From: Candidatus Gottesmanbacteria bacterium GW2011_GWC1_43_10
GTDB lineage: Bacteria; Patescibacteriota; Microgenomatia; UBA10105
Assembly (NCBI GenBank): GCA_000995415.1
Contig: LCEX01000002.1
Span: 19,232 to 83,231, forward strand
Length of the DNA: 64,000 nucleotides
Reading direction: 5' to 3'
The position numbers and the translations under genes are program-made. Each line of letters starts with the position of its first letter. Position 1 is the stretch's first letter. The notes under the pieces were generated by a model. It saw only the letters and a list, made by a program, of their open reading frames with translations. It made no database searches and was not told the DNA's origin. Shown here one piece after another: positions 1 to 44,987 of this stretch.

Positions 1-659
1 GCGCCGATAGTCCGGGACGAGCGGCGATCCCAGCCTGTATAGCGATAATTTTTTAGCAGACGCGAAACTTTCGGTAAGGGGAAAAGTTTAAGCAGCAATT
101 TTCCGGCCAAAGTCGAATCAAAAAATTCAACAAGCGGTGTTGGATAATCAGTCCCGGTCATCTCAATTTGGCCGTCGGGTTTTTTTTGCAAACATCCGGC
201 AATCCCCACCTGGGGATGGGTATCCATAAACCTCACTATTTTTGGCAAAGTGTTTTTAGGGATCAAAGTATCATCATTTACGACTAAAAAATACCGACCG
301 CGCGCTTTTTTTAAGTTTTGATTATGTGCTTTTGTAAATAACAAGTTTGATTTATTTCGTGTGACAGCGACCCGAGGAAAGCGTTGTCTGACCAGTTTTG
401 CGGTTTGGTCGGTTGAGCCATTGTCCACCAACAAAACTTGGAGATTTAAGCCTTTTTGTTTATAAATCGAATCCAAACACCGCAAAATCAAATCTACGGA
501 ATTGCGGGTGATGAGGGAGATTGTAAGGTCGATCCCAGCCCCAATCCCGCCATCATTAAAAGTTGGGAAGGCTTGGCGGAATGGAACGGGATGTTCGCCC
601 CAACGGGGCGTATCCTTGGTACCATTGGCTTGCCCGTGGGGCTCCATTGGATTTTTCAT
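1..659 (-). CDS. GT2 family glycosyltransferase, 3' end truncated by window edge
   Basis: Reverse-strand translation from ATG at 659-657 gives MKNPMEPHG...IDLTISLITRNSVDLILRCLDSIYKQ...LLVDNGSTDQT...VVNDDT, which has GT2 N-terminal, DxGS-TD and DxD-like motifs. No stop before position 1, so it is absent from the complete-ORF track. The true start may be an internal or alternative codon. Confidence 0.7.
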   Translation of the reverse strand, partial: MKNPMEPHGQANGTKDTPRWGEHPVPFRQAFPTFNDGGIGAGIDLTISLITRNSVDLILRCLDSIYKQKGLNLQVLLVDNGSTDQTAKLVRQRFPRVAVTRNKSNLLFTKAHNQNLKKARGRYFLVVNDDTLIPKNTLPKIVRFMDTHPQVGIAGCLQKKPDGQIEMTGTDYPTPLVEFFDSTLAGKLLLKLFPLPKVSRLLKNYRYTGWDRRSSRTIG

Positions 660-706
660 CGTTTGTAGTCTAACATAGGTAGAAAACTTAAATCTAATCA
701 TTTATT

Positions 707-2176
707 ATGGATGACTCAGATGTTCCTTATCAACGTTTCAAGAAACAGGTGGCCCAAAGCATTCTAGTATTAGGGGTCAGACGGATTTTATACCAAGTCA
801 TACTAACTTCAGCTAATATCGTTTTAGCCCGAGTCTTAAATCCTGAAATCTTTGGTACATTTGCGATCATTTCGTTTTTTGTTTTAAACCTAGGTATATT
901 TACCAATTTAGGATTACAACAAGCACTTATCCAGAGTAAAGATGAACCGGATGCTAAAGATATTCAAGTATTTTTTACTGTACTTGTAAGTACTTCTATA
1001 TTATTTGTTCTGGCGATGTATTTTTTGGCTCCGATCATCGCGAATTTTTATGGAGGGAAACTAGGTCCGGAGAGTATTTTTTGGTTACGGGTATACGCAG
1101 TATATATCTTATTTGGCAACATAGCTTCAGTCTCGATGACCTTACTGGATAAAAGCCTAAACTATGTCAAACTTACCATGGCGGAACTTGCGACTCTCGG
1201 GATAACACAAGTCTTGATAATTATTTTGGCAATAAATGGTTATGGTTTAGCAAGTTTGATACTGGGAAATTTGATCGGTAGCATCTCGGGAATAATCATC
1301 TATTATGGGTTGTCGCCGTGGTCCTTCGGCATACATTTTTCTTTTTCCCGACTTAAACGATTTTTGGCTTTTGGACTTAACTACCAATTTGGAACTTTGA
1401 CTGGAGCTTTTAATGCAGCGGTCATTCCTTTATTTGTGGGTACTGTTTCTGGGCCGGCCGCGGTAGGGTTTATCAACATGGCCGGCGGTATCAGGCAAGC
1501 AGGACTCGCGCCTACGGAAATGATAAGTAAATTGGCATTTACCGCCGGGGCCCGAATCCAAAATCAAACACAAACCCTAAAAAAGCTAACCGAACGAATG
1601 TTTCAGTTTGCCGCAATTTTTAGTTTTCCAATACTTGCTTTAACTGGCGCCCTAGTTCCTCAATTTATTCAAATAGTGCTTTCAAAAACTTGGTTGCCGA
1701 TGATCATAACTTTATATCTATCTTTATTCCAAGGTGTATTTATTTTGTATAGCACTATTTTGATTCAAGTGTTGTTGGCATTGGGTCTTGCCAAAGAAGT
1801 CCGGAATATTTCGCTCTTGTGGTCTTTTATGCAATGGATACTGACAGTACCTTTGGTAGTCTTTTTTGGATTTAACGGAGCTGTCATGGCCGGACTCATC
1901 GTTTCGGCGACTTTTTTTATTCCACTTTCTGTACTTCATAACAAGGTAAAAATAAATATTTGGTCACCGACTTTACCGTATTTGTTTTTTGCGATCGTCG
2001 CTGCCAGTATCGTCTACGGGCTGGGAAAATTATTTGAAATTCATTTCTTTTGGGAGTTGTTGCTTATGGGGTTTGTTGGACTATTTGTTTACGCATCATT
2101 ATTATATCTATTCCGTGGACAATATCTGTTAAATGAATTCAAAATTTATAAAGAAAATTTTTTTTCAAAAACGTGA
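707..2176 (+). CDS. Polysaccharide/oligosaccharide flippase, Wzx-like (MOP/PST family)
   Basis: 489 aa with about 12-14 hydrophobic segments and the typical PST-family N-terminus (RILYQVILTSANIVLARVL); it sits at the head of the glycosyltransferase cluster. TGA stop overlaps the GTG of the next gene. Confidence 0.75.
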   Translation: MDDSDVPYQRFKKQVAQSILVLGVRRILYQVILTSANIVLARVLNPEIFGTFAIISFFVLNLGIFTNLGLQQALIQSKDEPDAKDIQVFFTVLVSTSILFVLAMYFLAPIIANFYGGKLGPESIFWLRVYAVYILFGNIASVSMTLLDKSLNYVKLTMAELATLGITQVLIIILAINGYGLASLILGNLIGSISGIIIYYGLSPWSFGIHFSFSRLKRFLAFGLNYQFGTLTGAFNAAVIPLFVGTVSGPAAVGFINMAGGIRQAGLAPTEMISKLAFTAGARIQNQTQTLKKLTERMFQFAAIFSFPILALTGALVPQFIQIVLSKTWLPMIITLYLSLFQGVFILYSTILIQVLLALGLAKEVRNISLLWSFMQWILTVPLVVFFGFNGAVMAGLIVSATFFIPLSVLHNKVKINIWSPTLPYLFFAIVAASIVYGLGKLFEIHFFWELLLMGFVGLFVYASLLYLFRGQYLLNEFKIYKENFFSKT

Positions 2177-2829
2177 ATTTTCTGCACCGCTTATTATCAA
2201 TAAATCCACTGACCGCGCCTTTAATGCGATATGGGTCGTACATCAAAAACTACAAATTGACTTTGCAGGTCGAAGATAGACTGATCCAAAAAATGCTTCC
2301 GAGTTGGCGGAAAATGCAAATTCTGGATGTCGGTTGCGGTCCGGGCGAGAGAGAAAAGGACCGGCGCTTCCAGGGAGCTGACATCCTCTGTTTTGATATT
2401 TATACGCCTTACTTGGAGGTTTGCAAACGTTTAGGTTTTCAAACTAAGAAAGGAGATGCCCGTTTTTTATCTCGCTATTTTCGACCTAAATCTTTTGATA
2501 TCGTGTTGGCACTTGATGTGATTGAGCATATGACCAGAAGTGAAGGCAGACGATTTTTAAAGCAACTGGAAATAATTGCCCGGAAACAAATAATTATTTT
2601 GACGCCATTGGGTTGGTTCCCCCAAGACCATGAGTGTGTGGGTGACGGAACCAATAAACATCAGCAACATAAGTCAGCCTGGTACAGAAAAGATTTCGAG
2701 CTACTCGGATATGAGTGCGAAGTTTTATACCATAATTTGCGAGATATCCGAAACGGAGCTAAAGCACTGATACACAAAAAAACTCCGATCCCGGCGAGCC
2801 AAATGTGGGTAGTAAAGCTTATTGTTTAA
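2173..2829 (+). CDS. Class I SAM-dependent methyltransferase
   Basis: Motif I ILDVGCGPGE and motif-II-like LALDVIEHM. Start codon uncertain (GTG at 2173 in track). Confidence 0.65.
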   Translation: MNFLHRLLSINPLTAPLMRYGSYIKNYKLTLQVEDRLIQKMLPSWRKMQILDVGCGPGEREKDRRFQGADILCFDIYTPYLEVCKRLGFQTKKGDARFLSRYFRPKSFDIVLALDVIEHMTRSEGRRFLKQLEIIARKQIIILTPLGWFPQDHECVGDGTNKHQQHKSAWYRKDFELLGYECEVLYHNLRDIRNGAKALIHKKTPIPASQMWVVKLIV

Positions 2830-2833
2830 CCTT

Positions 2834-3664
2834 ATGAAAAAGCCTCTTATCTCAGTTTTATTACCAATATACAACGAGGAGAAACATATTCGCCAGTGCT
2901 TGGATTCGTTGTTGATACAAACATATAAACCAGTCGAAATATTGATAGCTGACGATGGATCTACGGATGCGACAGTTAAAATGGTCAAAACATTTCCGGT
3001 TAAATTATTTATAAATTCTCACCGCGGACCGGCAGTGCAAACAAATTTTCTAGCATCCAAAGCACGAGGTAAAATATTGATCCGAGCAGATGGGGATATG
3101 GTGCATGACCGAAATTACCTTACAAAACTAGTTGAACCGATTTTGAAAGGCGAGACTTTCGCGACTTTTAATAATGAGGCATATTTAGCCAACCCGCAAA
3201 ATACATGGGCTGTTTGTTGGTCCCTTAATCGGGGAATTGCCGATAACCTGATTGTTCCCAAAGGTGCATCTAGTCATTCCTGGGTTTTTAGAGCCATCGT
3301 CAAACAGAAGTTTATGCAAGTAGGGGGTTATGATGATGTCGGATATGAAGATGATCAAACTGTTCTTACCAAATTGGGAATGCCGGCGGCTATAAACGCA
3401 CCGGGGGCAATTTCGTACTGTTATAATCCGGAAAGCGGTCTTGATGTATTTAACTCGAGCAGATGGATAGGCAGAGGTGTTTGGTATAGAGACCATTTTT
3501 TATTTGGTTTACTAAAACACAATTTGGTTTTTTCTTTGATCATGGGGATTTATCACGGACTGCGTACTCGAAAAATAACATTTATACCGTTTAGACTATT
3601 GTACGATGCCGGAATCTCTCTAGGTTTGGTAGAGAGAAAGTTAAGAGGAAGGCACATCAAGTAA
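2834..3664 (+). CDS. GT2 family glycosyltransferase
   Basis: MKKPLISVLLPIYNEEKHI...ILIADDGSTDAT...RADGDM (DxD). ATG at 2834 preferred over TTG at 2822. Confidence 0.85.
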   Translation: MKKPLISVLLPIYNEEKHIRQCLDSLLIQTYKPVEILIADDGSTDATVKMVKTFPVKLFINSHRGPAVQTNFLASKARGKILIRADGDMVHDRNYLTKLVEPILKGETFATFNNEAYLANPQNTWAVCWSLNRGIADNLIVPKGASSHSWVFRAIVKQKFMQVGGYDDVGYEDDQTVLTKLGMPAAINAPGAISYCYNPESGLDVFNSSRWIGRGVWYRDHFLFGLLKHNLVFSLIMGIYHGLRTRKITFIPFRLLYDAGISLGLVERKLRGRHIK

Positions 3665-3678: not shown

Positions 3679-4443
3679 ATGAATCAACGAAAAACTGATC
3701 CGGAATTTTCTGAAGAAAGAGTTGTGCCAGATTTTAAAGAGCAGCACAATTTGTTTCAGGAACACTTTGCCCGCTATAAGTTTGCAGCTAAGTATGTTTT
3801 GGGGAAACAAGTACTTGATGCGGCTTGTGGATGCGGATATGGAGGGAAATTGTTTGCAGACAGCGGTGCCCAAAAAGTGACCGGCATAGATATCTCAAAA
3901 GCCGCAATTAAGTATAGCACTACGCACTATCGTAGTTCTGGTTTGACGTTTAAATTGATGGATTGTCAAAAATTGTTATTTAAAGACCAGGCGTTTGACG
4001 TGGTGACGGCGTTTGAATTCATCGAGCACTTGAGCTTACCAGGGCGGTTTTTACGAGAAGTGGATCGGGTATTGAAAACACAGGGAGTGTTTGTTATTTC
4101 TACACCAAATAATCTGAGAAATTCTCCCATTGAAAATAAATACCATTTCCGAGAATACAATGCTGTATCCCTTCGGTCATTGTTGAAGCCTTTTTTTTCC
4201 AAAATAGATCTTTATGGGCAGCGATATAAACCCTCAATTACTAGGCGGACAAAGCATCGGCAAAAATTAGTCAACTCAGTCCCAAAATTTGTTACTCGTT
4301 ATCTACCGTCAGGTCTAAAAGATTACTTATTCTCCCGCTTGATAAACCATTATTTACTGAACCTCAAAAATGAGGCGGATTTCAATATTGACCAAAATGA
4401 AATTGGAACAGCAACCCATCTGATAGGAGTTTGTTACAAGTGA
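3679..4443 (+). CDS. Class I SAM-dependent methyltransferase
   Basis: VLDAACGCGYGG motif I and AFEFIEHL motif II. Confidence 0.8.
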   Translation: MNQRKTDPEFSEERVVPDFKEQHNLFQEHFARYKFAAKYVLGKQVLDAACGCGYGGKLFADSGAQKVTGIDISKAAIKYSTTHYRSSGLTFKLMDCQKLLFKDQAFDVVTAFEFIEHLSLPGRFLREVDRVLKTQGVFVISTPNNLRNSPIENKYHFREYNAVSLRSLLKPFFSKIDLYGQRYKPSITRRTKHRQKLVNSVPKFVTRYLPSGLKDYLFSRLINHYLLNLKNEADFNIDQNEIGTATHLIGVCYK

Positions 4444-5579
4444 ATAAATATAGAATCCATATTCTTTGCCCGCGACTTGGGATAACCGACAGAGGTGCAG
4501 AAGTATTTGTCTATGAGTTGGCTAAATATTTACAGCGCGACTTTGCAGTGACAGTTTGGGTAAGAAAAACCAAAGGTCAATCATCAATGCTTGCTGATCT
4601 AAAAAAATATGAGGTCCAGGTAAGGTATGCTACTTGTATCGACGAGTCTCACCCCATTGCCTCGACGCTCTATAAAATTCATCCCCTTAGAAAAGTCCTT
4701 GAAAAACTGCGCCTTGATCCGATGGGGATAGAAATGCTGTCGTTTAGCTTGGTTTGCTTGCCAGGATTATTCCGATCGGGTGCGGATGTCCTGTTTCCCG
4801 TAAACGGTATCTGGGGAGTTTTGGCTTGTCAAATTGTGCGTATCTTTACCGGCATCCCATTTATATATTCATCTCAAGGTGGGATTGAACCACCGGTAGC
4901 ATTTTTACAGCCAAATGTTTATATAGCAATTCACAGGTATACAAAGTCTTGGTTGCTTAAACATTTTCCAAAACTGAAAGTCGTACATATTTCAAATGGA
5001 ATTGATTTGAAACGATTTACACCCCATGGAGAAAAGATTGTATTGGATTTGCCCCAGCCAATCTTTATCACCGTCAGCGCCTTGATACCTACAAAACGCA
5101 TTGATCTGACCATCAAAGCTATGGCCAAACTAAAATCTGGAAGTTTATTGGTATTGGGAAACGGACCGCTTAAGGAGGAACTCACCCAGTTAGGTGTACG
5201 CCTATTAGGGAGTGGCCGTTTTAAAATCCTGGCCGTCCCCAATACCCAAATACCCAAGTACTATCGGAGTGCATCTGTGTTTGCTTTTGCCGCGCCTGAA
5301 GAAAAAGGCTGGGGACTCGTACATTTGGAGGCTTTAGCATGTGGATTGCCGGCAGTTGTAAACGATGAAGAAAATTTGCGGTCTTTGATTGGTAAGGCTG
5401 CATTTTATTGTGATGTTTATGATGCCAACGCGTATTCTCGGTGTCTCTTTAAAGCCAATCAGAAACATTTTAATAGTGAAGGTAGACGTATCGCCCAAAC
5501 AGTAGCGTGGGAAACTGTGGGAAAAAAATACAGCCAACTCTTATATCAAATAGCAGCCAAAAATGAAAAAAGTAACTAA
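4440..5579 (+). CDS. GT4 (group 1) glycosyltransferase
   Basis: C-terminal E-x7-E region GWGLVHLEALACGLPAVVNDEE. GTG at 4440 overlaps the upstream TGA; TTG at 4431 is an alternative start. Confidence 0.8.
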   Translation: MNKYRIHILCPRLGITDRGAEVFVYELAKYLQRDFAVTVWVRKTKGQSSMLADLKKYEVQVRYATCIDESHPIASTLYKIHPLRKVLEKLRLDPMGIEMLSFSLVCLPGLFRSGADVLFPVNGIWGVLACQIVRIFTGIPFIYSSQGGIEPPVAFLQPNVYIAIHRYTKSWLLKHFPKLKVVHISNGIDLKRFTPHGEKIVLDLPQPIFITVSALIPTKRIDLTIKAMAKLKSGSLLVLGNGPLKEELTQLGVRLLGSGRFKILAVPNTQIPKYYRSASVFAFAAPEEKGWGLVHLEALACGLPAVVNDEENLRSLIGKAAFYCDVYDANAYSRCLFKANQKHFNSEGRRIAQTVAWETVGKKYSQLLYQIAAKNEKSN

Positions 5580-7293
5580 TTCACAGATTTGCTTAGGACT
5601 CATTTTGCTTTTAGCTTTTTTAGTAAGGGTTTGGGGGGTGGGATTTGGTTTACCCGCAAAACATTTCATTGACGAAGAAGGACAAATATACGGTGCGCTT
5701 TATGCTGCATATTCTCGGCTACAACCGGTTCGATTTATGTATGCCTCGTTTGTTCCTTATTTATTGTTGGCTGAATATGGAACAGTTTTTATAATCGGAA
5801 AAATCAGCGGCATATATCTGGCACCGTTTGACTTTTTGGTGGCTTATATTCGTGATCCCAGCAACCTGTTTTTGCTCGGGAGACTGACTATGGTTGTGGC
5901 TGGGACTTTAAGTGTCTGGCTGATATGGAAAATAGGCAAGAAATTTTATTCGAAAACCAGCGGTTTGGTAGCAGCTGGATTTTTGGCGATCATTTTTCTC
6001 CATGTAAAAGAATCTCACTATGTCAAACAAGATGTAATTTCTACTTTATTTATCCTCATGAGTTTTTATTTGGCTTTACTCAGTGTAGAAACCAAGAGGT
6101 TGCAACAGTATTTATTTACCGGAGTGACTTTGGCCTTGGCAGTGAGTGCTAAATACCAAACATTACTTATAGCGCCCGTCTTGTTTATCCACTATTACCT
6201 GACGCGCAAAAAGCCGTCGCTATCCCAATCGGTTGTGCTCGGAGTAGGTTTTGTATTGACCATGCTACTCTTAAATCCTTATTTTGTTTTGGCGCCAAAA
6301 AAAGTAATAGATGGGACTTTGGCAGAGTTTGCAATTGCCAAAACCGCTTATCCAGAGTTATTGCAAGGTCATCCAGTGTGGTGGTGGTTTGTATTTCAAC
6401 ATTTACCGCAAGGGTTGGGGACGGTTTTATTCGGAGCTAGCATTTGGGGTAGTCTGGTTTGTGTAGGACGAGGAATAAAAAATAGAAAATATTTGCTGAT
6501 TCCCTTACTGCCTGTAGTTTTTTTGTTGACCGTAGATCAATGGTCCCAATTCCCGAGTGCCAGATACGCGGTCATGTTGCTACCCTTTTTAGCCCTGGCC
6601 GCGGCTATTGGCCTCGAGTTTATTTTTTCTTTTCTGCCTCGTCACAAAGCAAGATCACTTTTCATGTTTGGGGCAATCCTCTTAGTGAGTATGGAATCGG
6701 GGATACGAGATGTAAAATTTGACTATTTGCTGACGCGGCCAGATACGCGTTATTTGAGTCAACAATGGATTGAGTCGCATATTCCGCTCGGCACGAAGAT
6801 TTTGGTAGAATCGACGGTCAGGCCTGAATACGGAGCCAATGTAAATACGCCGCTGACTTTATCCACCAGTGCAAATGACAAGCGGCTTAACGAGGCTCAA
6901 TCACGGGGCGAGTCTGGTTTATATTTGCAAGCTCTCAAAAAAGCCAATTTAGGCAAAGTTGGTTATGACATCGTAGCCACAGGTCGAGTCGACGTGCTGC
7001 TTGATGTTTTTACCAGTGAAAAAACGCTTATGGAAAATGCCGATTATTACGTCAGTTCCGAAGTGGATTATTTAGTTTTATCTAGTTGGTCAGTGAAACC
7101 GGATATGAAGCCGGAATTTATGCAATCAGTTGGTCGCCATTATGATTTGATAGCAAAATTTCGGCCGACTTATGAATTTCCCGACGACCCTCATTTGGTA
7201 AAAATGGATTATGCGGTTCTTGATCGCGTCTCTTTTTGGGGAAAGCCGGTCATTTTCGGGCCGGTGATTGATATTTACAAAAAACGAACATGA
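5563..7293 (+). CDS. Polytopic membrane protein, GT-C-fold glycosyltransferase-like (ArnT/PMT-type)
   Basis: 576 aa with many TM segments. Signal-anchor LLLAFLVRVWGVGFGLP is followed by an acidic loop HFIDEEG (DE-type motif after TM1), as in lipid-linked-sugar GT-C enzymes. Confidence 0.5.
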   Translation: MKKVTNSQICLGLILLLAFLVRVWGVGFGLPAKHFIDEEGQIYGALYAAYSRLQPVRFMYASFVPYLLLAEYGTVFIIGKISGIYLAPFDFLVAYIRDPSNLFLLGRLTMVVAGTLSVWLIWKIGKKFYSKTSGLVAAGFLAIIFLHVKESHYVKQDVISTLFILMSFYLALLSVETKRLQQYLFTGVTLALAVSAKYQTLLIAPVLFIHYYLTRKKPSLSQSVVLGVGFVLTMLLLNPYFVLAPKKVIDGTLAEFAIAKTAYPELLQGHPVWWWFVFQHLPQGLGTVLFGASIWGSLVCVGRGIKNRKYLLIPLLPVVFLLTVDQWSQFPSARYAVMLLPFLALAAAIGLEFIFSFLPRHKARSLFMFGAILLVSMESGIRDVKFDYLLTRPDTRYLSQQWIESHIPLGTKILVESTVRPEYGANVNTPLTLSTSANDKRLNEAQSRGESGLYLQALKKANLGKVGYDIVATGRVDVLLDVFTSEKTLMENADYYVSSEVDYLVLSSWSVKPDMKPEFMQSVGRHYDLIAKFRPTYEFPDDPHLVKMDYAVLDRVSFWGKPVIFGPVIDIYKKRT

Positions 7294-8252
7294 AACAAAA
7301 CACGCCCCAGTACCAGAAAGCTCATGACTTCAGCAAGAGAATAAATAGCCTTTTGGGCTTTCGGTACGGGATTTCGCCTCCGGTGTCGGACGAGAAGCCG
7401 CGGACTTTAGTCCGCGGAGGCTCACTTACCGCTCATTGTTTGGTGAAAAACGAACAGAATTGGGTGTGGTTTGCTATCAATTCGGTATTGGACTTTGTAG
7501 ACAAAATTATCGTTTTTGATACCGGTTCCACGGACGACACAGTTCCCATCATCAAGACAATACGAAGTCCTAAAATCAAATTTTCACAAAAAGGCCCAGT
7601 TGATAAAAAACAACTTACCCGACTCCGGCAGGAGATGCTGGATCAAACCAAAACTTCCTGGTTTATGGTGCTAGACGGGGATGAGATTTGGCCAAGAACC
7701 ACGATTGCCGAACTGACCGCGGCTATCCGCCAAGCCAGCTCTAAACAACAGGCAATTGTTGTCGGCCAATGGATGTGGCAGGGAGACGTGTATCACTACT
7801 CGCCAGTAGTTGAAGCCTTGGTTGATCCACTCGCACCAAAGAACTTGACCGGATACAGGTTGCCGCGAGCTATCAAAATGCTGCCAGGAATTCAGACAAT
7901 CGGAGAATATGGATGGGAAAGTTACGCCGACCAAAAAAATCTCAACGTTTCCGACTGGAATAAAGAACGACTGATATACATAAAAAACAAATTTTTCCAC
8001 GCTTCATTTTTACCGCGTTCTAGTACGAGGGAAAAAGACAGAGAGGTGATGATGCGCGGCCCCAAAACCAGATTTACTAAAGGCGCGTTATTTCCCAAAA
8101 ACGTCATTTTGCCCGAAATCCTATCTGCCAAACGGCCACAGCAAGTTCCTTCTCCCTGGCAGCATCTGACCCTAAAGCAAGCAGCAGTGGGTTTTTATTA
8201 TAGAGCGCAAAATTTAGTCGAGCGATTTGGGAGGCAGGTCGGAAATTTATGA
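7290..8252 (+). CDS. GT2-like glycosyltransferase
   Basis: CLVKNEQNWV...VFDTGSTDDT...VLDGDEIW (DxD); ATGA overlap with the upstream gene. Confidence 0.6.
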   Translation: MKQNTPQYQKAHDFSKRINSLLGFRYGISPPVSDEKPRTLVRGGSLTAHCLVKNEQNWVWFAINSVLDFVDKIIVFDTGSTDDTVPIIKTIRSPKIKFSQKGPVDKKQLTRLRQEMLDQTKTSWFMVLDGDEIWPRTTIAELTAAIRQASSKQQAIVVGQWMWQGDVYHYSPVVEALVDPLAPKNLTGYRLPRAIKMLPGIQTIGEYGWESYADQKNLNVSDWNKERLIYIKNKFFHASFLPRSSTREKDREVMMRGPKTRFTKGALFPKNVILPEILSAKRPQQVPSPWQHLTLKQAAVGFYYRAQNLVERFGRQVGNL

Positions 8253-20264: not shown

Positions 20265-20277
20265 AATTTTGAAGTTA

Positions 20278-32307: not shown

Positions 32308-33126
32308 TTATGTCAGTTTATCATTTAATCTGATAAGTTGAAAAAAAGCAAACTCAATAAACTTGGTTATGATCAATACTGCTGCTGCCAGCGGATCAGC
32401 CAGCAACATTGGAAATTTTCTAGCCATGAGTTTCAGTCGAAACCAACCGCTTTGGTGTAAAAACTGTTGCGGATGGTATCTGGCATACACCTGAATATGT
32501 TTGGCATAATAAAATTTGTGTTTAAGCTCGCGCCAGAATGAAGTTTCGTAGTGATAAAGCGAAGTACGAGTTCGGCCAATGTTGCCGATTCGACTTACCC
32601 GTTGGGATAAATCCCAATCTTCACCCGCGACTAGATTTTCTCTAAACCCGCCGACTTTGAGAAAGACAGACTTTTTAATAAATCTGGCTGCTTCAATAAC
32701 TGGCTCGTTTAGATAAAGTTGTTTCTCGAGTTTTTTGACTCTAGTAAACCAGCCTTTTCCTTTGACAGTTTCTGGGATGATCACCGCGTCAGCGAGGTTG
32801 GTTTGAATAGCTTTAACGCAGTCAGCGATGACTGTTGATGGTAGTTCCATGTCAGCATCCAAGAGCAAAAGATGGCGACCTCGGGATTTAAGTACACCAA
32901 AATTTCTTTGTTTACTGCGTTCGCCGGAGTAAGAAAAAACCTGCACCGGAAATTTTTTGACTATTTCCAATGTGGTGTCGGTGGAATAATTGTCGACAAT
33001 AATGATCTCCAAACTGGTAAAAGTTTGCTTAAGCAAACTTTTGAGTAGACGTTGGATATTCATTGCTTCATTTTTGGTTGCAATCACGACTGACACCAGC
33101 GGAGATGAAACACTTTTCTTAACCAT
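32308..33126 (-). CDS. GT2 family glycosyltransferase (polyprenyl-phosphate sugar synthase-like)
   Basis: VSVVIATKNEAMNI...IIIVDNYSTDTT...LDADME. Confidence 0.85.
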   Translation of the reverse strand: MVKKSVSSPLVSVVIATKNEAMNIQRLLKSLLKQTFTSLEIIIVDNYSTDTTLEIVKKFPVQVFSYSGERSKQRNFGVLKSRGRHLLLLDADMELPSTVIADCVKAIQTNLADAVIIPETVKGKGWFTRVKKLEKQLYLNEPVIEAARFIKKSVFLKVGGFRENLVAGEDWDLSQRVSRIGNIGRTRTSLYHYETSFWRELKHKFYYAKHIQVYARYHPQQFLHQSGWFRLKLMARKFPMLLADPLAAAVLIITKFIEFAFFQLIRLNDKLT

Positions 33127-36869: not shown

Positions 36870-37791
36870 TGCTTAAAGGGTGATTAACCATATGTCGTAA
36901 ATCGGTAATTAAGCTGGTTGGAGTAAATCTTAACATCTGTTTGACTTTCCCCGTAGACAAAGTCGTATCCAGCGGACGCGGAAAGAAATTTTTGAAGTAG
37001 TTACCGGTAACAGGGACCAGAATGGGAGGATTTTTGATGTCAAAAGCTGAAATCAAATTTTGGACGAAAGAATAGCGACTGACGCGATCCTGGCCTCCGA
37101 CGTGAAAGATACAGGAAGTTTTCATTTTTATTACTTTATCAATTATCTGAGCCGCTCTTAAGGCATATATCGGATTGTAAAAGCGGTCGTTAACCAGATA
37201 TATTTTTTTTGTGTTTTGTAACCTTTGCAGGTAAAAAATAGCGTCATTTTCTCTAGCGCCGTCAGGTGGCCAGCCAAACATAGTTGCAAATCTGATGATG
37301 GTGGCTGATAGTGATTTAGTTTTGAGAATGATTTTTTCCGCTGACAACTTGGTTTTGCCATAAATACTTACAGGGTGGGGTAAAGATGTTTCCCGATAGG
37401 GTGCGTTTTGACCGGAGAAGACCTGTGAAGAAGAGGTAAAAATGAGTTGAGTCGGCGAATGACTCAAAATCTGACATAGATGAGATGTAGCATCAATATT
37501 GATGATTCTGGTTTCTTTGGGATGAGTTTGACAGTACTCGATATTGGATACTGCTGCAAGATGAATGACGACGTCAGGACAGGTATCAGATATTGTTTTT
37601 TCGACTTGGGAAAGATTTGTGACGTCGAGGCTTAAATAACGGATTTGCGGGTGTGATGAAATCACCGGTTGAGGAACTCGGTGGAAGGCAAGAAAAAGTT
37701 GAAAACGGTCTGACAATTGTTGTATCAGGTATCGGCCCAAAAGTGAAACAGCTCCGGTGATCAAAATCTTGGTATGAGTTGGCTTACGCAT
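36862..37791 (-). CDS. NAD(P)-dependent sugar reductase/epimerase, RmlD-like (dTDP-4-dehydrorhamnose reductase family)
   Basis: ILITGAVSLLGRYL Rossmann fold and catalytic YGKTK (YxxxK); length 309 aa. Confidence 0.7.
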   Translation of the reverse strand: MRKPTHTKILITGAVSLLGRYLIQQLSDRFQLFLAFHRVPQPVISSHPQIRYLSLDVTNLSQVEKTISDTCPDVVIHLAAVSNIEYCQTHPKETRIINIDATSHLCQILSHSPTQLIFTSSSQVFSGQNAPYRETSLPHPVSIYGKTKLSAEKIILKTKSLSATIIRFATMFGWPPDGARENDAIFYLQRLQNTKKIYLVNDRFYNPIYALRAAQIIDKVIKMKTSCIFHVGGQDRVSRYSFVQNLISAFDIKNPPILVPVTGNYFKNFFPRPLDTTLSTGKVKQMLRFTPTSLITDLRHMVNHPLSSD

Positions 37792-37878: not shown

Positions 37879-39003
37879 ATGAAACTTCAGGTGTTGTTGA
37901 TTTCGCCTACCGATCCCAACCATCCGGTTGAATACAAATATCTTACCGGGGGCGAAAATACTTATACTCAAACTTTACTTCACTTTCCGCCAGACGGCAT
38001 CGAATTTACCTATTTTACTCAAGCGTTGAAACTGGGTTGGATCAGTTATCATCCGTTGTACCATTTCCTATTATTTTTGCAAAAAATTAAGCTGTTACCT
38101 CCCGGGCCACGAACATATGTGTTTAAAGTCCGTAAACATTTTGACCTGGTTTATGCCCACGCGCACCCAATAAAAATTGTGGGGGAAAAAGTACCGGTAG
38201 TGGTTTCTGATAGTTCTTCAAATATCATTTTCCTAACCGAGTATCTCAAACTTTCTTCTTTGGTGATTAAACTCTGGTATATATGCAAAAGATTTGTCTT
38301 TGGAGGTTTCGGTATCATTGATTGCGAAGTAAATTTACGGGGGGCACAAGGATTTTTTGTTTTTTCAAAATGGGCTCGCCACATCAAAAAAGAAAAATTT
38401 GATCTGTCAAATGTTGAAGTCATTTATCCAGGATTGGCGCAGCCAAGAAAAAAACCAGCGGGCCATAAAAGAAAAATAGACATAAAGTTTTTATTTGTCG
38501 GAGTCTGGTTTGAACGAAAAGGCGGACGCATATTGCTTAAAGTTTTTCGAAACTTAAGTAAAACCTATACCAATATATCCCTGACCATTTTAGGCGAGTT
38601 ACCACCGGATATAAAGATAGGAAAGACAGAACCAATCACACACAAAGATTTTGTTTCTCACTCCAAATTACAGTACTATTTTGCAACTCATGATGTTTTG
38701 GTACACGTGCCGATAGAGGTTGAAGGATACGGCATGACAGTGGTCGAAGCAATGGCAAATAGTATGTGTGTGGTGGTCTCTGATGTTTGCGCTTTACCGG
38801 AGTTGGTAGAAGACGGTGACAGCGGTTTGGTAGTCAAAGCCAATTCAGAGGTAGATTTGGAAAAAAAATTAATGAGGCTTATTAAGTCTAGTCAACTGCG
38901 GTTAAATTTAGGTCGAACTGCCAGAAGAAGGTTTCAAGCAAAATTTGCCTTACGAGTGTTCCAACAGGAGTTGAGAAGTATATTTGTGAAAGCTATTAAA
39001 TAA
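37879..39003 (+). CDS. GT4 (group 1) glycosyltransferase
   Basis: E-x7-E region GYGMTVVEAMANSMCVVVSDVCALPELVEDG. Confidence 0.8.
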   Translation: MKLQVLLISPTDPNHPVEYKYLTGGENTYTQTLLHFPPDGIEFTYFTQALKLGWISYHPLYHFLLFLQKIKLLPPGPRTYVFKVRKHFDLVYAHAHPIKIVGEKVPVVVSDSSSNIIFLTEYLKLSSLVIKLWYICKRFVFGGFGIIDCEVNLRGAQGFFVFSKWARHIKKEKFDLSNVEVIYPGLAQPRKKPAGHKRKIDIKFLFVGVWFERKGGRILLKVFRNLSKTYTNISLTILGELPPDIKIGKTEPITHKDFVSHSKLQYYFATHDVLVHVPIEVEGYGMTVVEAMANSMCVVVSDVCALPELVEDGDSGLVVKANSEVDLEKKLMRLIKSSQLRLNLGRTARRRFQAKFALRVFQQELRSIFVKAIK

Positions 39004-40096
39004 TTTTGTTTAGCAGCTGCTCCAGTTTTCGCGTTTGCGTAAGCCAGGAGGGAAATTTATTCACCATGATTTGAGCTCTGTTTCCCAATTTTAACCTGAG
39101 TCGGCGATGTTGCAACAGACTGGTTAACTCATGAGCCAAAGCGTTGGCAGTTTCCTCTGCCACAACAATTCCGGTAGTTTTATCTTTGACGAGTTCTTTA
39201 AGACCATTGACCCGAAAACATACGGTGGGAGTTTGTTGGCTGGCAGCTTCAAGCACGGTTAAGCCAAAACCTTCTTTGAGAGAGGGGTGAACCAAGATCC
39301 ACGCATATCTCAGTAATTTAAATTTTCCTTTCTCGGACACTTGATGGAGAAATCTGACTCTATTTATCAGACCAAGTTTTCTAGTTAATTGATTTAAGTG
39401 GTTGATATAGTGGGTTTTACCCCGGCCGACAATAATAACTTTGAGGCTACGAAACTGTGTTTTGAGTATTTGACATACCTCGAGCAATAATTCCAAGCGT
39501 TTTATCGGTGCCAATCGACCTACATATATAAGTGTTGGCTGTTGGGATTTGGGTAGGCGAACTAATGTCGGTGGGTTGATCGTCAAAGGTAAGATAGAAA
39601 TATTGATTTCCGGTATGCCTTTTTTGATAAGTTCTGAAGCGGTTGAATTGGCATCGGTCAAAAAATGGAGATGACGATAAAAATAAAAATAGATTTTTTC
39701 GCTCATGTATCCGATTGTAGCCAAAGGAAAAGAAAAATCAGCAAACCAGATTTCACCGGCAACTTCGTGGATAAAAGCCAGAATTGGTTTTTGGATATAA
39801 AGCGGAGTAAAAAAAGGCAGGCCGTGGATCTCATCAATCACAATATCAACTTGATCGCGTAAATGAGACAAGTAAAAAATACAGGCATGTAGTTGGATCG
39901 TATATAGATTTCCCAGGCGGATCACTTTTACGCCCGCGATGGTTTCGCGTTTAGCTAAACCGGGGGAGAGACTTGAAATTTGGAAAACCTGATGCCCCAG
40001 TTTGACTAAATGCTTGGCATATTCATGAGTAGCAATTTCCGCTCCACCTGCTAATGGATGTCGTAGGTCTTTCCAATTTAGGATAAGAATCCGCAT
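38996..40096 (-). CDS. GT4 (group 1) glycosyltransferase
   Basis: MRILILNWKDLRHPLAGGAE N-terminus and GFGLTVLEAASQQTPTVCF. Internal ATG at 40096 chosen because the track extension overlaps the upstream GT2. Confidence 0.8.
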   Translation of the reverse strand: MRILILNWKDLRHPLAGGAEIATHEYAKHLVKLGHQVFQISSLSPGLAKRETIAGVKVIRLGNLYTIQLHACIFYLSHLRDQVDIVIDEIHGLPFFTPLYIQKPILAFIHEVAGEIWFADFSFPLATIGYMSEKIYFYFYRHLHFLTDANSTASELIKKGIPEINISILPLTINPPTLVRLPKSQQPTLIYVGRLAPIKRLELLLEVCQILKTQFRSLKVIIVGRGKTHYINHLNQLTRKLGLINRVRFLHQVSEKGKFKLLRYAWILVHPSLKEGFGLTVLEAASQQTPTVCFRVNGLKELVKDKTTGIVVAEETANALAHELTSLLQHRRLRLKLGNRAQIMVNKFPSWLTQTRKLEQLLNKII

Positions 40097-40121
40097 GCCC
40101 AAGATTATAGCAGAAGATTTA

Positions 40122-40916
40122 TTAGAGAGATTGCAACAGCGGTTTAAATGCCAGCGCTTTGTCTGTGTTTTCGTGAGTATAAAACTTGAGGATATTTTTA
40201 CGGTAATAAATAGCCGCAACATCCTGTAGAAAATTTTTGACCGCCCGGATATCAATCGTACTTTGGTTAGCAGGAGAATGATGAATGACTACCGGAACTT
40301 CGGTGATATCACTAAATCCCATGATTTGGGCCACTACCAATAGTTCCAAATCAGTGGCGAAACGCTTGATCACCAGTCGTGGAAAAACCTGATTGAGGAC
40401 ATTGCGCCGAAATATCTTTAAACCCACCTGGGTATCTGAAACATTTAGATGGAATAAAACTCGGATGACTACTTTTAGAATCAAGCTGTAGAAAACCCTA
40501 TTCCAGGGATAATAAATGCGCGAAGCGGGATGGTACTTGGAGGCAATCAGCATATCAGACGAATTATGCAAAAATTGCCGAAGCTTGTTGACAACTTGCC
40601 GCGGTCGGATATCCAAATCCCCGTCCAAAAAAACTACCGGGTCACCAATCGACCGGGTAAAGCCAGTCTGCAAGGCAAATCCTTTGCCGAAATTTTGCGA
40701 GTAATGCAAGATTTGTATCTTCTTTCGAACAGGGTAAGCGTTTCTGAAATTTAACGCCGATTTTAGGGAGGTGTCAGTAGAACCATCGTCGACTAAAATG
40801 ATTTCGTAATCCCGTAAACCCTGTCGAGAAAGTTCCTGTGTCAATAAAAATAGAGCCTTAGCGAGAATTTTACCTTTATTATAAACGGGAATGATAAAAG
40901 AAATCATTAATTTCAC
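40122..40916 (-). CDS. GT2, dolichyl/polyprenyl-phosphate sugar synthase-like
   Basis: MISFIIPVYNKG...IILVDDGSTDTS...LDGDLD. GTG at 40916 or ATG at 40907, possibly leaderless (see the repeat/promoter feature at 40878-40947). Confidence 0.85.
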   Translation of the reverse strand: MKLMISFIIPVYNKGKILAKALFLLTQELSRQGLRDYEIILVDDGSTDTSLKSALNFRNAYPVRKKIQILHYSQNFGKGFALQTGFTRSIGDPVVFLDGDLDIRPRQVVNKLRQFLHNSSDMLIASKYHPASRIYYPWNRVFYSLILKVVIRVLFHLNVSDTQVGLKIFRRNVLNQVFPRLVIKRFATDLELLVVAQIMGFSDITEVPVVIHHSPANQSTIDIRAVKNFLQDVAAIYYRKNILKFYTHENTDKALAFKPLLQSL

Positions 40917-41047: not shown

Positions 41048-42592
41048 TTATTGGCTTTGACTATCAGGAGACCTGAATGTCTGTTGGGAATTATCAAGAA
41101 CTAAAGCTTCTAGATCCAAATAAGTGCTCTTTGAAAGCTCGATGTTTACTCCCGGCCAATTGTCGGATCTATTTTTGATAACGACTACTCGTTTTGGGTC
41201 GGTGTCCTCTATAGGAGTTGGAAAAAGACTGTATGCCCGATATATCCAGTCCCAATTCCGGTAATGGTAGCTTTTGACCGCCGGACGGAAATACAATGTA
41301 TATAGCTCGGTCCAACCTCCTCCATGGATATAAGGGTCGTTTGAGGCGTACAGAGAAAATTTCTCATTACCGATAGCATCAGTAGTGTTTTTGATGAGGT
41401 TTATCTTTTGATAAAGCGGATATTTCACTTGAGAGTTAACTAGGGTATAAAGATTCACGCTAAAATAAAAAATTAACCATGCCGCCATTAACCACTTAGC
41501 TCGTTGTTCAATCCAAACTAATACCTGAGCTACCAAAACGATGAAAATCGGGTAAAATACCATAAAATAATGTTGGAAGAAGTTGCCCCTGAAGACGATA
41601 TTGTAAAAATAAAGACTGATAACAAAGGCAAACACCATGATCCACAACAATCGCATTTTCCAGACTGGGGGTTTTTTGGAAAAAAGCCAGTATAAACTTA
41701 TGCCAAGCATGATCACAACCATCAGTTGTGTTACCGGTGTAAACAGTGCAAGTGGAACATCGCAGTAACAAAAATTTTGCTCAATAAATTTGCTGGGAGC
41801 TGTAAAAAGGACCCGGGTTAACACTCCGATCACTTCTGCCGGTGGATAAAGCTTGCCGTCGGTGGGTAACATATCAGGCCTTATGGGGCGAGCCAAAGAT
41901 CGCACAATCGCTTTCGAAACTACTCCGTGATAACGCACTTCGGCCATTAAAAAAGGCATTATAAATATTCCCAGTATCACCAAACCTGCTGCTGTGTATT
42001 TATTTTTGAGTGAGACTTTAAAAAATGCTAAAGTGATCAAGATCGCTACTACCAACGCTATGAGTGATGCGTCTTCGTGAAAGGCAAAGCCAATTGGGAA
42101 AGCCAAAAGCGGAAGAAATCGATAGTCCTTTTTGATCACTTTCATCAAACTCCACAATGTCAACGCCGACAAAACCGGATTTAAGGTCAGATGCACCAAG
42201 CGGCGGTCGAATAATGAAATAAAGAATGAAGTTGCATACAAAAAACTTGCCACCAAACCAAGTTTTTTGTCTCCGATCTCGGATCCGGCTTTATAAACCA
42301 AAAAAGTGGTGATCACTCCTAAGACTGAAGCAATTGTTTGAAGATTTACCAAGTCAAACTTGGTCAAGTAATAGAAAGGGGTCAAAAAATAGTGATAAAA
42401 AGGTCCTAGCCCAAACCCCAAACTGGCATTTTGTACTAAAAGTGTGGGTGAACGATCCCAAATGATATGTCGAATGGTAGCAGTGAGCACTTCTTCATCC
42501 CCACTCCAATACTGAAAATCGTAAAAGTTATAAAAACGGAAAAATATTGCCAGTGCAATAATAAAAACTAGAAGTCGATGCTTAATGGCCAA
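41048..42592 (-). CDS. GT-C glycosyltransferase-like polytopic membrane protein
   Basis: 514 aa and hydrophobic, with first-loop YWSGDEEVLTATIRH (DE motif). TTG start, with GGGAGGA immediately upstream. Confidence 0.6.
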   Translation of the reverse strand: MAIKHRLLVFIIALAIFFRFYNFYDFQYWSGDEEVLTATIRHIIWDRSPTLLVQNASLGFGLGPFYHYFLTPFYYLTKFDLVNLQTIASVLGVITTFLVYKAGSEIGDKKLGLVASFLYATSFFISLFDRRLVHLTLNPVLSALTLWSLMKVIKKDYRFLPLLAFPIGFAFHEDASLIALVVAILITLAFFKVSLKNKYTAAGLVILGIFIMPFLMAEVRYHGVVSKAIVRSLARPIRPDMLPTDGKLYPPAEVIGVLTRVLFTAPSKFIEQNFCYCDVPLALFTPVTQLMVVIMLGISLYWLFSKKPPVWKMRLLWIMVFAFVISLYFYNIVFRGNFFQHYFMVFYPIFIVLVAQVLVWIEQRAKWLMAAWLIFYFSVNLYTLVNSQVKYPLYQKINLIKNTTDAIGNEKFSLYASNDPYIHGGGWTELYTLYFRPAVKSYHYRNWDWIYRAYSLFPTPIEDTDPKRVVVIKNRSDNWPGVNIELSKSTYLDLEALVLDNSQQTFRSPDSQSQ

Positions 42593-42675: not shown

Positions 42676-42824
42676 AAAAAAGCTGATTGAGGTACTAGAT
42701 TTGAGCTGAAATTGGTGAAAAATCTAACTGCTAGGTTTTATTACAATTGAGTTTTCCAGAATTGCAAGGCAGGAACAGATATTATATGATCGGGAGATCA
42801 AAATTTGACCGAGAGAATAATTTT

Positions 42825-43052: not shown

Positions 43053-43053
43053 T

Positions 43054-44775
43054 ATGTATATCTTAGGAATTTCCTGTTATTTCCATGATGCTGCGGCGGT
43101 TCTACTCAAAGACGGCAAAATCATCGCCGCCATTGAAGAAGAGCGGCTAAGCCGTCACAAGCACGATGCCGGATTTCCAAGTCGTGCTATTGACTTCGTT
43201 TTAGAACAAACAGGGATTAAGCCGCAAAACCTGGATTATGTCGTGTTCTATGAAAAACCGTTTCGCAAGTTGCAGCGAATTTTTTATTCGACTATTGTTA
43301 ATTATCCTAAATCCGCCGCTGCCTTTGCCGAAGCAATGCGCGTTTGGTTGACCCAAAAACTTTGGATCAAACAGGAAATTGCCACTCATTTGGGGATCGC
43401 TACCCAAAAAATTCTTTTCACCCAACACCATTTAGCTCATGCAGCGAGTTGTTTTTACCCGTCGCCGTTTGTTGAGGCGGCCATTTTGACTGTAGATGGC
43501 GTTGGTGAATGGACAACTACATCAACTGGAATTGGTATCGGTAATCATATTGAATTAACCAAAGAAATCAGATTTCCCCAATCTCTGGGACTTTTATATT
43601 CAGCATTTACTGCCTGGTTGGGTTTTGAAGTCAACGAAGGTGAGTGGAAGGTGATGGGGCTGGCTCCATACGGACGACCCCGTTATGTGAATAAAATTTG
43701 GAAAATGGTGAAACTAAATCCGGATGGCAGTTTCTTTCTTGATTTAGACTATTTTGCGTTTCAGTATTCGGATACCCAATCATTCTCAGACAAGTTTGTG
43801 AGTTTGTTTGGTAAACCCATTGAAAGGAATCAGGCGCATTTGATTTCCGAAAAAGGGGCGGATGTGGCTGCCAGTATTCAGGTGGTGACTGAAGAGATTT
43901 TATTGAATATGGCAAAAAAATTACAGCAGGAAACGCAGTCAAAAAATTTATGCCTGGCCGGTGGAGTGGCTTTAAATTCAGTTGCTAACTACAGACTGCT
44001 AAAAGAGAGTGGATTTAGTCATATTTTCGTACAGCCGGCAGCAGGTGATTCAGGCGCAGCTTTGGGAGCAGCCCTTTATGTGTATCATCAAGTCACTCGC
44101 GATAAAAGCCGTTTTTTACAAAGTCATAGTTATCTGGGAATTGAATTTGCAAATCCGGAGATTAAACGGTTTTTGAGAACTCAAGCCATTGATTATCACT
44201 TTTTTCCGACACCAAAATTGCTGGATTATATCGCAGGGCAAATCGCCCGGGGCCGCGTCGTGGGTTGGATGCAAGGAAAATGCGAATGGGGACCGCGGGC
44301 TTTGGGGGCAAGGAGTATTTTAGCTGATGCCCGAAATCCCAAAATGAAAGATATTATAAATAGCAAGGTCAAGTTTCGTGAAGCTTTTCGTCCGTTTGCT
44401 CCATCAGTGCTGGCTGAAAAGGCGCATTTGGTTTTTGATCTACCCCAAAACACCAGAGACTGGTGGCCACTTAGATACATGCTGTATGTAGTACCGGTAA
44501 GGACAACTTGGCGGAAAAAAGTTCCGGCGATCACCCATATTGATCACACGGCCAGACCACAGCTGGTTGACCGCAAAATAAATCCCCTATATCACAAGCT
44601 GATCCGCAAGTTTTATCAAAAAACCGGGGTACCTCTGGTTTTAAATACTTCATTTAACCTCAAAGGCGAACCCATCGTAGCGACTCCGACGGACGCCTAT
44701 TCCACATTTTTACGTTCCGGGATTGATATTTTGGTGATGGGAAATTACGTCTGCGAAAAAGAAAGAAATAAATAA
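43054..44775 (+). CDS. Carbamoyltransferase (NodU/CmcH/NovN family), full length
   Basis: MYILGISCYFHDAAAVLLKDGKIIAAIEEERLSRHKHDAGFP family N-terminus; HHLAHAASCFY; C-terminal domain present (573 aa). Confidence 0.9.
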   Translation: MYILGISCYFHDAAAVLLKDGKIIAAIEEERLSRHKHDAGFPSRAIDFVLEQTGIKPQNLDYVVFYEKPFRKLQRIFYSTIVNYPKSAAAFAEAMRVWLTQKLWIKQEIATHLGIATQKILFTQHHLAHAASCFYPSPFVEAAILTVDGVGEWTTTSTGIGIGNHIELTKEIRFPQSLGLLYSAFTAWLGFEVNEGEWKVMGLAPYGRPRYVNKIWKMVKLNPDGSFFLDLDYFAFQYSDTQSFSDKFVSLFGKPIERNQAHLISEKGADVAASIQVVTEEILLNMAKKLQQETQSKNLCLAGGVALNSVANYRLLKESGFSHIFVQPAAGDSGAALGAALYVYHQVTRDKSRFLQSHSYLGIEFANPEIKRFLRTQAIDYHFFPTPKLLDYIAGQIARGRVVGWMQGKCEWGPRALGARSILADARNPKMKDIINSKVKFREAFRPFAPSVLAEKAHLVFDLPQNTRDWWPLRYMLYVVPVRTTWRKKVPAITHIDHTARPQLVDRKINPLYHKLIRKFYQKTGVPLVLNTSFNLKGEPIVATPTDAYSTFLRSGIDILVMGNYVCEKERNK

Positions 44776-44987
44776 TCTTCAAATTTTCTAAAAGCCTGTT
44801 TAGAAACCCGCAAAATTAGTCTAATTTTATACTTGCGTTTAAAGCAAAAAATCCCGATGTGTCAAGCCAGTACACTTTCGATGTGTTCGCCTATGCAATT
44901 TATCCTCATCTATCACTTGGTAACTGGATAAAAACTCCGGATTTGATATACACTAATGTTATACCCATGTCAAAAGGGGATTTTCGT

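Follow-up and report, generated by a model that had tools for sequence, protein, structure and literature searches.

Seven predicted GT-C glycosyltransferases, three of them from an old triplication, in a large glycan locus of a Microgenomates bacterium

The 64,000-nucleotide stretch of contig LCEX01000002.1 analyzed here (the window) begins inside a dense array of glycan genes that holds seven GT-C glycosyltransferases. Three of these, called paralogs A, B and C below, represent an uncharacterized and anciently triplicated family; while the general pathway logic is familiar, this concentration of GT-C enzymes in a lineage of reduced genomes is unusual. The array is probably a chromosomal cell-envelope glycan locus whose pathway is a hybrid, with glycosyl transfer outside the membrane as its dominant part. 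The functions assigned to its genes (Table 1) are predictions from sequence comparison, based in large part on Pfam scans of all open reading frames (ORFs) of at least 150 amino acids (aa) in the first 48 kb of the window and in 9.3 kb of upstream DNA; the Pfam matches in the locus are all many orders of magnitude past chance. The organism is a Microgenomates bacterium, a member of the Candidate Phyla Radiation (CPR). A hypothetical protein of Candidatus Gottesmanbacteria bacterium GW2011_GWA2 (Patescibacteria group, Microgenomates group) matches paralog A at 100% identity, and the tRNA-Tyr has a long variable arm of the bacterial type.

The GT-C enzymes

A preliminary description of this DNA had listed four GT-C enzymes with a DE motif and, separately, three paralogous polytopic membrane proteins of about 950 aa. 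The four are all recovered. Three belong to the PMT_2 family, with scores against PF13231 of 56.0, 40.3 and 41.7 bits (cutoff 26.1), and all three carry in loop 1 the D-E pair (D37-E38) that is invariant among 27 aligned sequences. The fourth, a 663-aa protein, is assigned to the GT-C superfamily on the strength of its DE motif and a profile match between its family and PMT_2 (hhalign 95.8%, E 7e-9, 309 columns). This family comprises 304 representative clusters and carries the motif WRGDEDxH, in which G130 and D131 are invariant and E132 is nearly so. The protein has no Pfam family, a scan of 49 members giving one weak ALG10 match, and a PDB sequence search with it returned nothing useful.

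The three larger proteins are true paralogs, with 24-32% identity, but the earlier classification has to be corrected, as they too are GT-C glycosyltransferases. Their N-terminal polytopic membrane domain has the GT-C fold. In the structural comparisons (AlphaFold model of paralog A, predicted local distance difference test score, or pLDDT, 89.5), Pmt4 is the best match, AftA, AftB and AftD are also among the matches, and the membrane domain lies nearest to PMT and STT3. A G39-x-D41 motif and other residues are invariant in a 35-sequence alignment of the trio family. D41 lies in the first extracytoplasmic loop, and a comparison with the PMT_2 profile (hhalign 93.8%) sets it opposite the D of that family's DE motif. 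Against PF10131 (PTPS_related; gathering cutoff 26.4) paralog A reaches 22.7 bits, B and C give no match, and many homologs of A carry a precomputed match to this family, which belongs to the GT-C clan CL0111 (PMC7801869). PDB sequence searches with paralog A alone and with the family profile gave no match. With these three included, the window encodes seven GT-C enzymes, so that the locus appears to be dominated by extracytoplasmic chemistry.

The outer part of each trio protein, about 500 residues followed by a final transmembrane (TM) helix, resembles the GATase1/ThuA-like and beta-sandwich domains found at the C-termini of GH42 and GH164 enzymes. An identity as an STT3/AglB/PglB oligosaccharyltransferase was considered and rejected: there is no PF02516 match and no PDB sequence match, the motif reads WWNALFD rather than WWDYG, and the GATase1/GH42-like outer domain differs from the STT3 C-terminal fold.

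Conservation, extent and integrity of the locus

Comparison with related genomes shows that this enzyme-rich locus is not an isolated oddity. A genome scan with the trio alignment gave 32 loci, and ORFs in 35 loci were labelled by similarity to the window proteins. The core of the locus proved to be a conserved synteny block across Microgenomates, with the recurring order A> B> double-GT4< methyltransferase< (carbamoyltransferase<) GT4< PMT_2<. The loci with an informative label belong to Gottesman-, Chisholm-, Levy-, Davies- or Curtissbacteria or are marked just "Patescibacteria group"; Woesebacteria are among the protein matches and share the core synteny as well. The conserved part corresponds to about 17.3-30.7 kb of the window, and the flanks vary from locus to locus, with Wzx, GT2, DegT and RmlD-like genes often found near the core. 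At least two trio genes are present in 30 of the 35 loci, and the double-GT4 gene adjoins the A/B pair in 19. Throughout, the three genes sort into separate orthologous groups whose order is conserved: most related loci keep the tandem A>B, and C, as a group of its own, lies on the opposite strand in many of them. The triplication is thus ancient, with each of its products retained.

Two side observations concern these relatives. About 15 bins with a trio and synteny of the Microgenomates type (among L016-L045) are titled "uncultured Gammaproteobacteria" or "Pseudomonadales", labels that we suspect are wrong. In another related locus, the immediate neighbor of the tandem GT-C pair is a Wzm/Wzt-type ABC exporter (L010, 7802-9929; ABC2_membrane; ABC_tran with Wzt_C), which hints that export routes differ between relatives.

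The array was originally described as contiguous and mostly overlapping, and it is: genes overlap at 20 of 33 junctions, and coding sequence takes up about 97% of window positions 1-44800. Its supposed start at base 1 was incorrect. Window positions 1-12176 correspond to 9295-21470 of an independent assembly (L011), in which at least 9.3 kb of further glycan-type genes lie to the left of the window; the locus thus measures 54 kb or more, as its left end was not reached. Going left, these genes encode the full 341-aa GT2 that the window start truncates, a GT4 and a methyltransferase, then a second methyltransferase-GT2 fusion, a second DegT protein and another methyltransferase, and finally a 702-aa polytopic protein, a 376-aa protein with 10 TM segments and a partial 755-aa protein. 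The 702-aa protein is related to the trio (hhalign 94.6%). The 376-aa protein (L011 165-1295) was considered as a GT-C enzyme or a WecA-like initiator and set aside, with no Pfam match and an hhalign value of 6%. On the right, the final enzyme gene stops at 44775; next comes the gene for a Ser/Thr-rich surface protein of 1054 aa, and the genes after it are unrelated.

Metagenomic loci of this kind could in principle be chimeric contigs or decayed pseudogene arrays. The source is indeed metagenomic, and one carbamoyltransferase lacks its C domain. Yet dozens of independent groundwater assemblies and two NCBI genome bins contain the same DNA with 99.9-100% identity, so the contig is not chimeric, and the ORFs are full length with strong family matches. 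The glycosyltransferase and methyltransferase families originally called are for the most part upheld by Pfam, and identity at this level among assemblies speaks against scattered pseudogenes. An apparent strain variant (L006) without the GT2 gene at 7290-8252 turned out to be merely a 100-N scaffold gap. An artefact of either kind has a practically negligible probability.

CPR bacteria, whose genomes are very small, presumably rely on other cells. If single contigs from bins of related Chisholmbacteria (0.77 and 0.89 Mb) are taken as a scale, the 54 kb or more of this locus would amount to about 5% of the genome. How CPR bacteria build their envelopes is stated to be unclear (PMC5220378), and our literature searches on such loci in Microgenomates and the CPR found no description of the locus or of the context of its families. 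Retention of the core across several Microgenomates classes argues that its product is central to their biology, with roles that could include, for example, attachment, host or phage recognition, or protection. The analysis also places three uncharacterized GT-C families in a defined genomic context with high-confidence models, and makes the PF10131-like family experimentally approachable.

Table 1. Predicted features of the window by position (SAM, S-adenosylmethionine; SDR, short-chain dehydrogenase/reductase; LbH, left-handed beta-helix)
Feature	Position	Strand	Match or other evidence
GT2, 5' part, cut by window start	3..701	-	PF00535 1.1e-23; first 233 codons of 341-aa gene
MOP-superfamily (Wzx-like) flippase	707..2176	+	Polysacc_synt_3 4.7e-50; ~12-16 hydrophobic segments
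SAM methyltransferase	2173..2829	+	Methyltransf_11 5.8e-8
GT2	2822..3664	+	PF00535 1.3e-27
SAM methyltransferase	3679..4443	+	Methyltransf_31 3.2e-22
GT4	4431..5579	+	Glycos_transf_1 4.7e-19
PMT_2-family GT-C, DE motif	5563..7293	+	PMT_2 7.3e-15
GT2	7290..8252	+	PF00535 4.6e-10
GFO/IDH/MocA oxidoreductase, probable nucleotide-sugar 3-dehydrogenase	8249..9268	+	PF01408 1.2e-22
SAM methyltransferase-GT2 fusion	9311..10723	-	Methyltransf_23 1.2e-17; PF00535 5.9e-37
663-aa polytopic DE-motif protein, GT-C superfamily	10767..12758	+	15 hydrophobic segments; hhalign to PMT_2
DegT-family sugar aminotransferase, C-3 type by similarity	12747..13868	-	PF01041 3.5e-109
LbH N-acetyltransferase	13831..14370	-	Hexapep 1.9e-18
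456-aa protein: N-half without known family, C-half class I SAM-methyltransferase-like	14393..15763	+	motifs; weak TlyA/FtsJ
517-aa membrane-anchored alkaline-phosphatase-superfamily enzyme, EptA/LtaS-like architecture	15760..17313	+	Sulfatase 6.6e-4, below gathering score
Paralog A: 954-aa GT-C-fold transferase (PF10131-like), GH42-like extracytoplasmic domain, C-terminal TM helix	17365..20229	+	
Paralog B: 952-aa GT-C-fold transferase	20269..23127	+	32% identical to A, full length
Double-GT4, 785 aa, two GT4 modules	23129..25486	-	Glycos_transf_1 1.2e-45, two stretches
FkbM-type methyltransferase	25459..26241	-	Methyltransf_21 5e-11
SAM methyltransferase	26220..26942	-	Methyltransf_23 1.3e-18
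Carbamoyltransferase, Kae1-like N domain only	26997..28244	-	Carbam_trans_N 2.2e-33
GT4	28105..29286	-	Glycos_transf_1 5.5e-17
PMT_2-family GT-C, DE motif	29241..30653	-	PMT_2 4.8e-10
SAM methyltransferase	30650..31414	-	Methyltransf_11 3.5e-13
GT2	31408..32292	-	PF00535 5.3e-20
GT2	32308..33126	-	PF00535 1.1e-23
SAM methyltransferase	33119..34138	-	Methyltransf_11 5.6e-17
Paralog C: 909-aa GT-C-fold transferase	34140..36869	-	24-26% identical to A and B
RmlD-like SDR reductase/epimerase	36862..37791	-	RmlD_sub_bind 1.5e-45; TIGR01214 147.7 bits vs cutoff 224
GT4	37879..39003	+	Glycos_transf_1 6.8e-25
GT4	38996..40255	-	Glycos_transf_1 2.2e-35
GT2, polyprenyl-phosphate sugar synthase-like (GtrB/ArnC/PgfS-like), adjoins PMT_2 gene	40122..40916	-	PF00535 1.3e-20
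PMT_2-family GT-C, DE motif	41048..42592	-	PMT_2 1.8e-10
Complete O-carbamoyltransferase (NodU/CmcH/TobZ type)	43054..44775	+	Carbam_trans_N 1.1e-84; Carbam_trans_C 2e-69
1054-aa Ser/Thr-rich membrane-anchored surface protein	44859..48023	+	S+T 29-31% over residues 91-700 vs 11.7% background
AAA_14/DUF4143 ATPase, first of the unrelated genes after the locus	within 48091-52855	-	
TOTE-conflict-system AEP primase fused to ResIII/DEAD helicase	49489-51705		PF22548 4.9e-67
tRNA-Tyr(GTA)	54429-54514		
DUF559 endonuclease-like gene	55416-55787		
tRNA-Thr(TGT)	59045-59117		

Assembly and tailoring enzymes, and the pathway they suggest

The preliminary count of 12 GT2 and GT4 domains agrees with Pfam (six of each, with a 13th GT2 cut by the window start), and the Wzx-type flippase is likewise recovered. 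Two of the GT2 proteins resemble synthases of polyprenyl-phosphate sugars. The top NCBIfam matches of the fusion protein at 9311-10723 are AglJ, PgfS, ArnC and a Dol-P-hexose transferase, and those of the protein at 40122-40916 are PgfS, ArnC and PpgS, in both cases far below the curated cutoffs.

Domain scans also agree with the proposed oxidoreductase/aminotransferase/acetyltransferase triad and RmlD-like reductase. The top NCBIfam match of the oxidoreductase is UDP-GlcNAc 3-dehydrogenase (1e-49, below the curated cutoff); all three triad scores fall under equivalog cutoffs (for example 169.7 vs 450), though the top matches are the expected kinds of enzyme. The nearest solved relatives of the aminotransferase are the C-3 aminotransferases QdtB, DesV and WbpE (2oga is also listed), and those of the acetyltransferase are the 3-amino-sugar N-acetyltransferases WxcM-like, WlbB and QdtC, with the lipopolysaccharide biosynthesis acetyltransferase 3mqg also among its PDB relatives. 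Because these relatives act at sugar C-3, it is reasonable to predict a 3-acetamido sugar. The WbpB/WbpE/WbpD, GnnA/GnnB and QdtB/QdtC routes follow the same order of oxidoreductase, C-3 aminotransferase and LbH N-acetyltransferase; they differ from the window in that no UDP-GlcNAc 6-dehydrogenase (WbpA) and no 3,4-ketoisomerase (QdtA) is present here.

Of the eight methyltransferase domains originally claimed, seven are identified by Pfam, one of them fused to a GT2. The eighth, called with lower confidence, is the C-terminal half of the 456-aa protein, which contains a motif I, VWDMGANTGEFS, and the sequence ILALDND and gives weak matches to TlyA (1.1e-3) and FtsJ (0.05); a PDB sequence search with this protein gave nothing useful. 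The claim of two carbamoyltransferases held in part. The gene at 43054-44775 is complete, but that at 26997-28244, which probably starts near 28100, lacks the YrdC-like C domain, and tblastn found no remnant of it; the orthologs in L009 and L018 have 576-586 aa. Two genes downstream of this truncation lies the FkbM methyltransferase gene, which is absent from the L009 locus, and the loss of the C domain together with the FkbM gene may reflect a gene-replacement event. Methylation and carbamoylation of the glycan are plausible predictions from these genes.

The sulfatase-like membrane enzyme of the preliminary description also stands. The 517-aa protein belongs to a very large family, many members of which match PF00884, and its model (pLDDT 90.4, five N-terminal helices) has as top Foldseek matches EptC (1e-7, TM-score 0.61 on the target), choline sulfatase, EptA, MCR-1 and PbgA. 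The motifs IFDRYGRDD, HILVPHDPF and QSDEG were read by eye; a PDB sequence search was of no use here either.

These enzymes can be arranged into the following scheme. In the cytoplasm, the GFO-family 3-dehydrogenase, C-3 aminotransferase and LbH N-acetyltransferase would convert UDP-GlcNAc into a 2,3-diacetamido sugar, and the RmlD-like SDR would provide a reduced or epimerized sugar. The GT2 and GT4 enzymes, including the double-GT4, would build a glycan on a polyprenyl carrier at the cytoplasmic side, where the SAM methyltransferases and the O-carbamoyltransferase would decorate it, and the MOP flippase would carry the lipid-linked material to the outer face. The GtrB/ArnC-like GT2s (9311-10723, 40122-40916) would meanwhile make polyprenyl-phosphate sugars, with which the seven GT-C enzymes could extend or decorate a polymer or protein outside the membrane, and the EptA/LtaS-like enzyme would add a phospho-substituent. 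The donors, the acceptor, the order of steps and the number of products (one or several) are what we infer here. The flippase, for instance, could equally carry polyprenyl-phosphate-sugar donors, for which a MATE/MOP-type flippase provides a precedent (PMC11127046).

Several points weigh against this scheme. The GtrB-like assignment of the two GT2s comes from sub-threshold NCBIfam matches, and just two or three candidate lipid-phosphate-sugar synthases stand against seven or eight GT-C enzymes. One carbamoyltransferase is truncated. No initiating phosphoglycosyltransferase, GtrA-type flippase, LCP ligase or known acceptor gene was found in the window or the 9.3 kb upstream; with regard to small flippases of the GtrA/GtcA type, no small ORF with four TM segments was found, and the 88-aa ORF described below, the only small one that other assemblies call in the intergenic gaps, has one hydrophobic segment. 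Finally, with at least nine strand switches along the ORF map and with variable flanks, the locus may serve several products.

How do other explanations fare with the same evidence? A Wzx-family flippase amid many Leloir glycosyltransferases and tailoring enzymes, all in one tight array, is what a classical Wzx-dependent heteropolysaccharide of the O-antigen or capsule type would require, its unit being built on undecaprenyl diphosphate, tailored, flipped and polymerized. However, Pfam finds no initiating phosphoglycosyltransferase, Wzy, Wzz or WaaL-type ligase among the scanned ORFs of the first 48 kb and the upstream 9.3 kb, so that a single classical Wzx/Wzy glycan is not supported. Moreover, seven GT-C enzymes would have no role in such a pathway, and the relatives keep the GT-C core, with a Wzx homolog within 10 kb in just 10 of 35 loci and, in one case, a Wzm/Wzt exporter. 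This alternative is very unlikely. The broader idea in the preliminary description, of a lipid-carrier glycan finished outside the membrane, survives, but the hallmarks of a Wzx-dependent repeat-unit pathway are absent from the scanned region and the locus may make more than one glycan. General protein O-glycosylation, with the PMT_2 and PF10131-like enzymes acting on Ser/Thr-rich surface proteins (S-layer, pilins or the 1054-aa protein) and the other genes making donors, would fit the nature of PMT-type enzymes as protein O-mannosyltransferases, the structural match to Pmt4, the GT2 matches to PgfS (part of a protein-glycosylation system) and the 1054-aa protein encoded directly downstream. 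PF13231 also spans lipid- and glycan-directed enzymes such as ArnT, though, a homolog of the Ser/Thr-rich protein lies near the trio in only one of 35 loci, and simple O-mannosylation would hardly require 12 Leloir glycosyltransferase domains, which imply a long or complex glycan; we therefore judge this explanation unlikely.

The strand switches and the conserved core with variable flanks, together with duplicated functions (two DegT proteins, two methyltransferase-GT2 fusions, three PMT_2 proteins), would also be expected of a glycosylation island in which several independent pathways, such as a core polymer, accessory decorations and a protein-glycosylation module, are co-located. Against this stand the extreme packing, with overlaps of 4-8 nucleotides across functional classes, and the fact that distant relatives, too, have this mix of classes around the trio. 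An island of this kind has some chance of being correct, if a rather small one. One more specific role for the trio can be imagined: it may be the missing polymerase or ligase of the lineage, independent of Wzy and WaaL and possibly a hetero-oligomer like Pmt1-Pmt2 or EmbA-EmbB, which polymerizes a flipped, methylated or carbamoylated oligosaccharide or attaches it as a whole to the wall, to a lipid anchor or to surface proteins of Microgenomates. The idea is a doubtful one; if true, the trio would be a new functional class of GT-C enzyme and would give a first mechanistic entry into the way CPR bacteria make the surface by which they attach to hosts.

The hybrid pathway has parallels in several known systems. 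In the synthesis of mycobacterial arabinogalactan and of lipomannan and lipoarabinomannan, cytoplasmic GT4 steps are followed by the Emb, Aft and Mpt GT-C enzymes, which use decaprenyl-phosphate sugars. There, too, adjacent paralogous GT-C proteins with large outer domains (compare embCAB) extend a GT4-primed glycan outside the membrane. The phyla and the folds of the soluble domains are nonetheless different and there is no sequence-level relation; methyl and carbamoyl tailoring is also far denser here, and no DprE-type epimerase pair was identified.

Combinations of a GT2, a flippase and a GT-C enzyme also have a precedent (PMC8035078). In three-component systems such as GtrA/GtrB/GtrC, CsbB/GtcA/YfhO and the GT136 pentofuranose system (PMC8035078, PMC11127046), the GT2 makes a polyprenyl-phosphate sugar, which is flipped and then used by the GT-C enzyme outside. 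Some of these GT-C enzymes resemble the trio in having a large extracytoplasmic domain, and the flippase of one system is, like that of the window, of the MATE/MOP type (PMC11127046). In contrast, the window encodes seven GT-C enzymes from three sequence families and no GtrA-type flippase, its GT2 assignment is sub-threshold, and the soluble domain of the trio is similar to the C-terminal domains of GH42 enzymes, not to a known carbohydrate-binding module. The rhamnose-rich wall polysaccharide loci of lactococci and streptococci (PMC10821137, PMC9574508) are likewise large, belong to monoderms, combine cytoplasmic assembly and export with GT-C side chains, and are split into a conserved and a variable part. 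Those loci have RmlABCD, an initiating transferase, an ABC exporter or Wzx/Wzy, and LCP ligases, whereas only a Wzx-like and an RmlD-like protein are found here.

Flanking genes and minor features

Directly upstream of the complete carbamoyltransferase gene lies the 88-aa ORF (42786-43052), which is called in other assemblies as well and has no family match. Beyond the carbamoyltransferase, the 1054-aa protein consists of a signal anchor, about 600 residues of Ser/Thr-rich Ig/FN3-like repeats and several TM segments, with an STP linker, ASPTTQTQASPATGTPSPSP, and weak CarboxypepD_reg and Ig matches. It may be a surface glycoprotein that marks the right edge of the locus. That it is itself a substrate for glycosylation is speculative, and the case for a dedicated substrate is weakened by the rarity of its homologs near the trio.

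Positions 48091-52855 look like a defense or conflict module; in addition to the ATPase and the primase-helicase fusion, they hold a 240-aa protein of no assigned family and a DUF6155 protein. In a Woesebacteria relative, an AbiEii/AbiEi toxin-antitoxin pair (L008, 17059-18323) interrupts the corresponding glycan locus. Farther downstream in the window, the ORF at 62029-63999 runs off the end after more than 657 codons; its product has an N-terminal signal peptide and no Pfam match. The housekeeping genes of this region encode a cyclophilin, a bacterial-type PGI, a two-component system, an M50 peptidase and L28.

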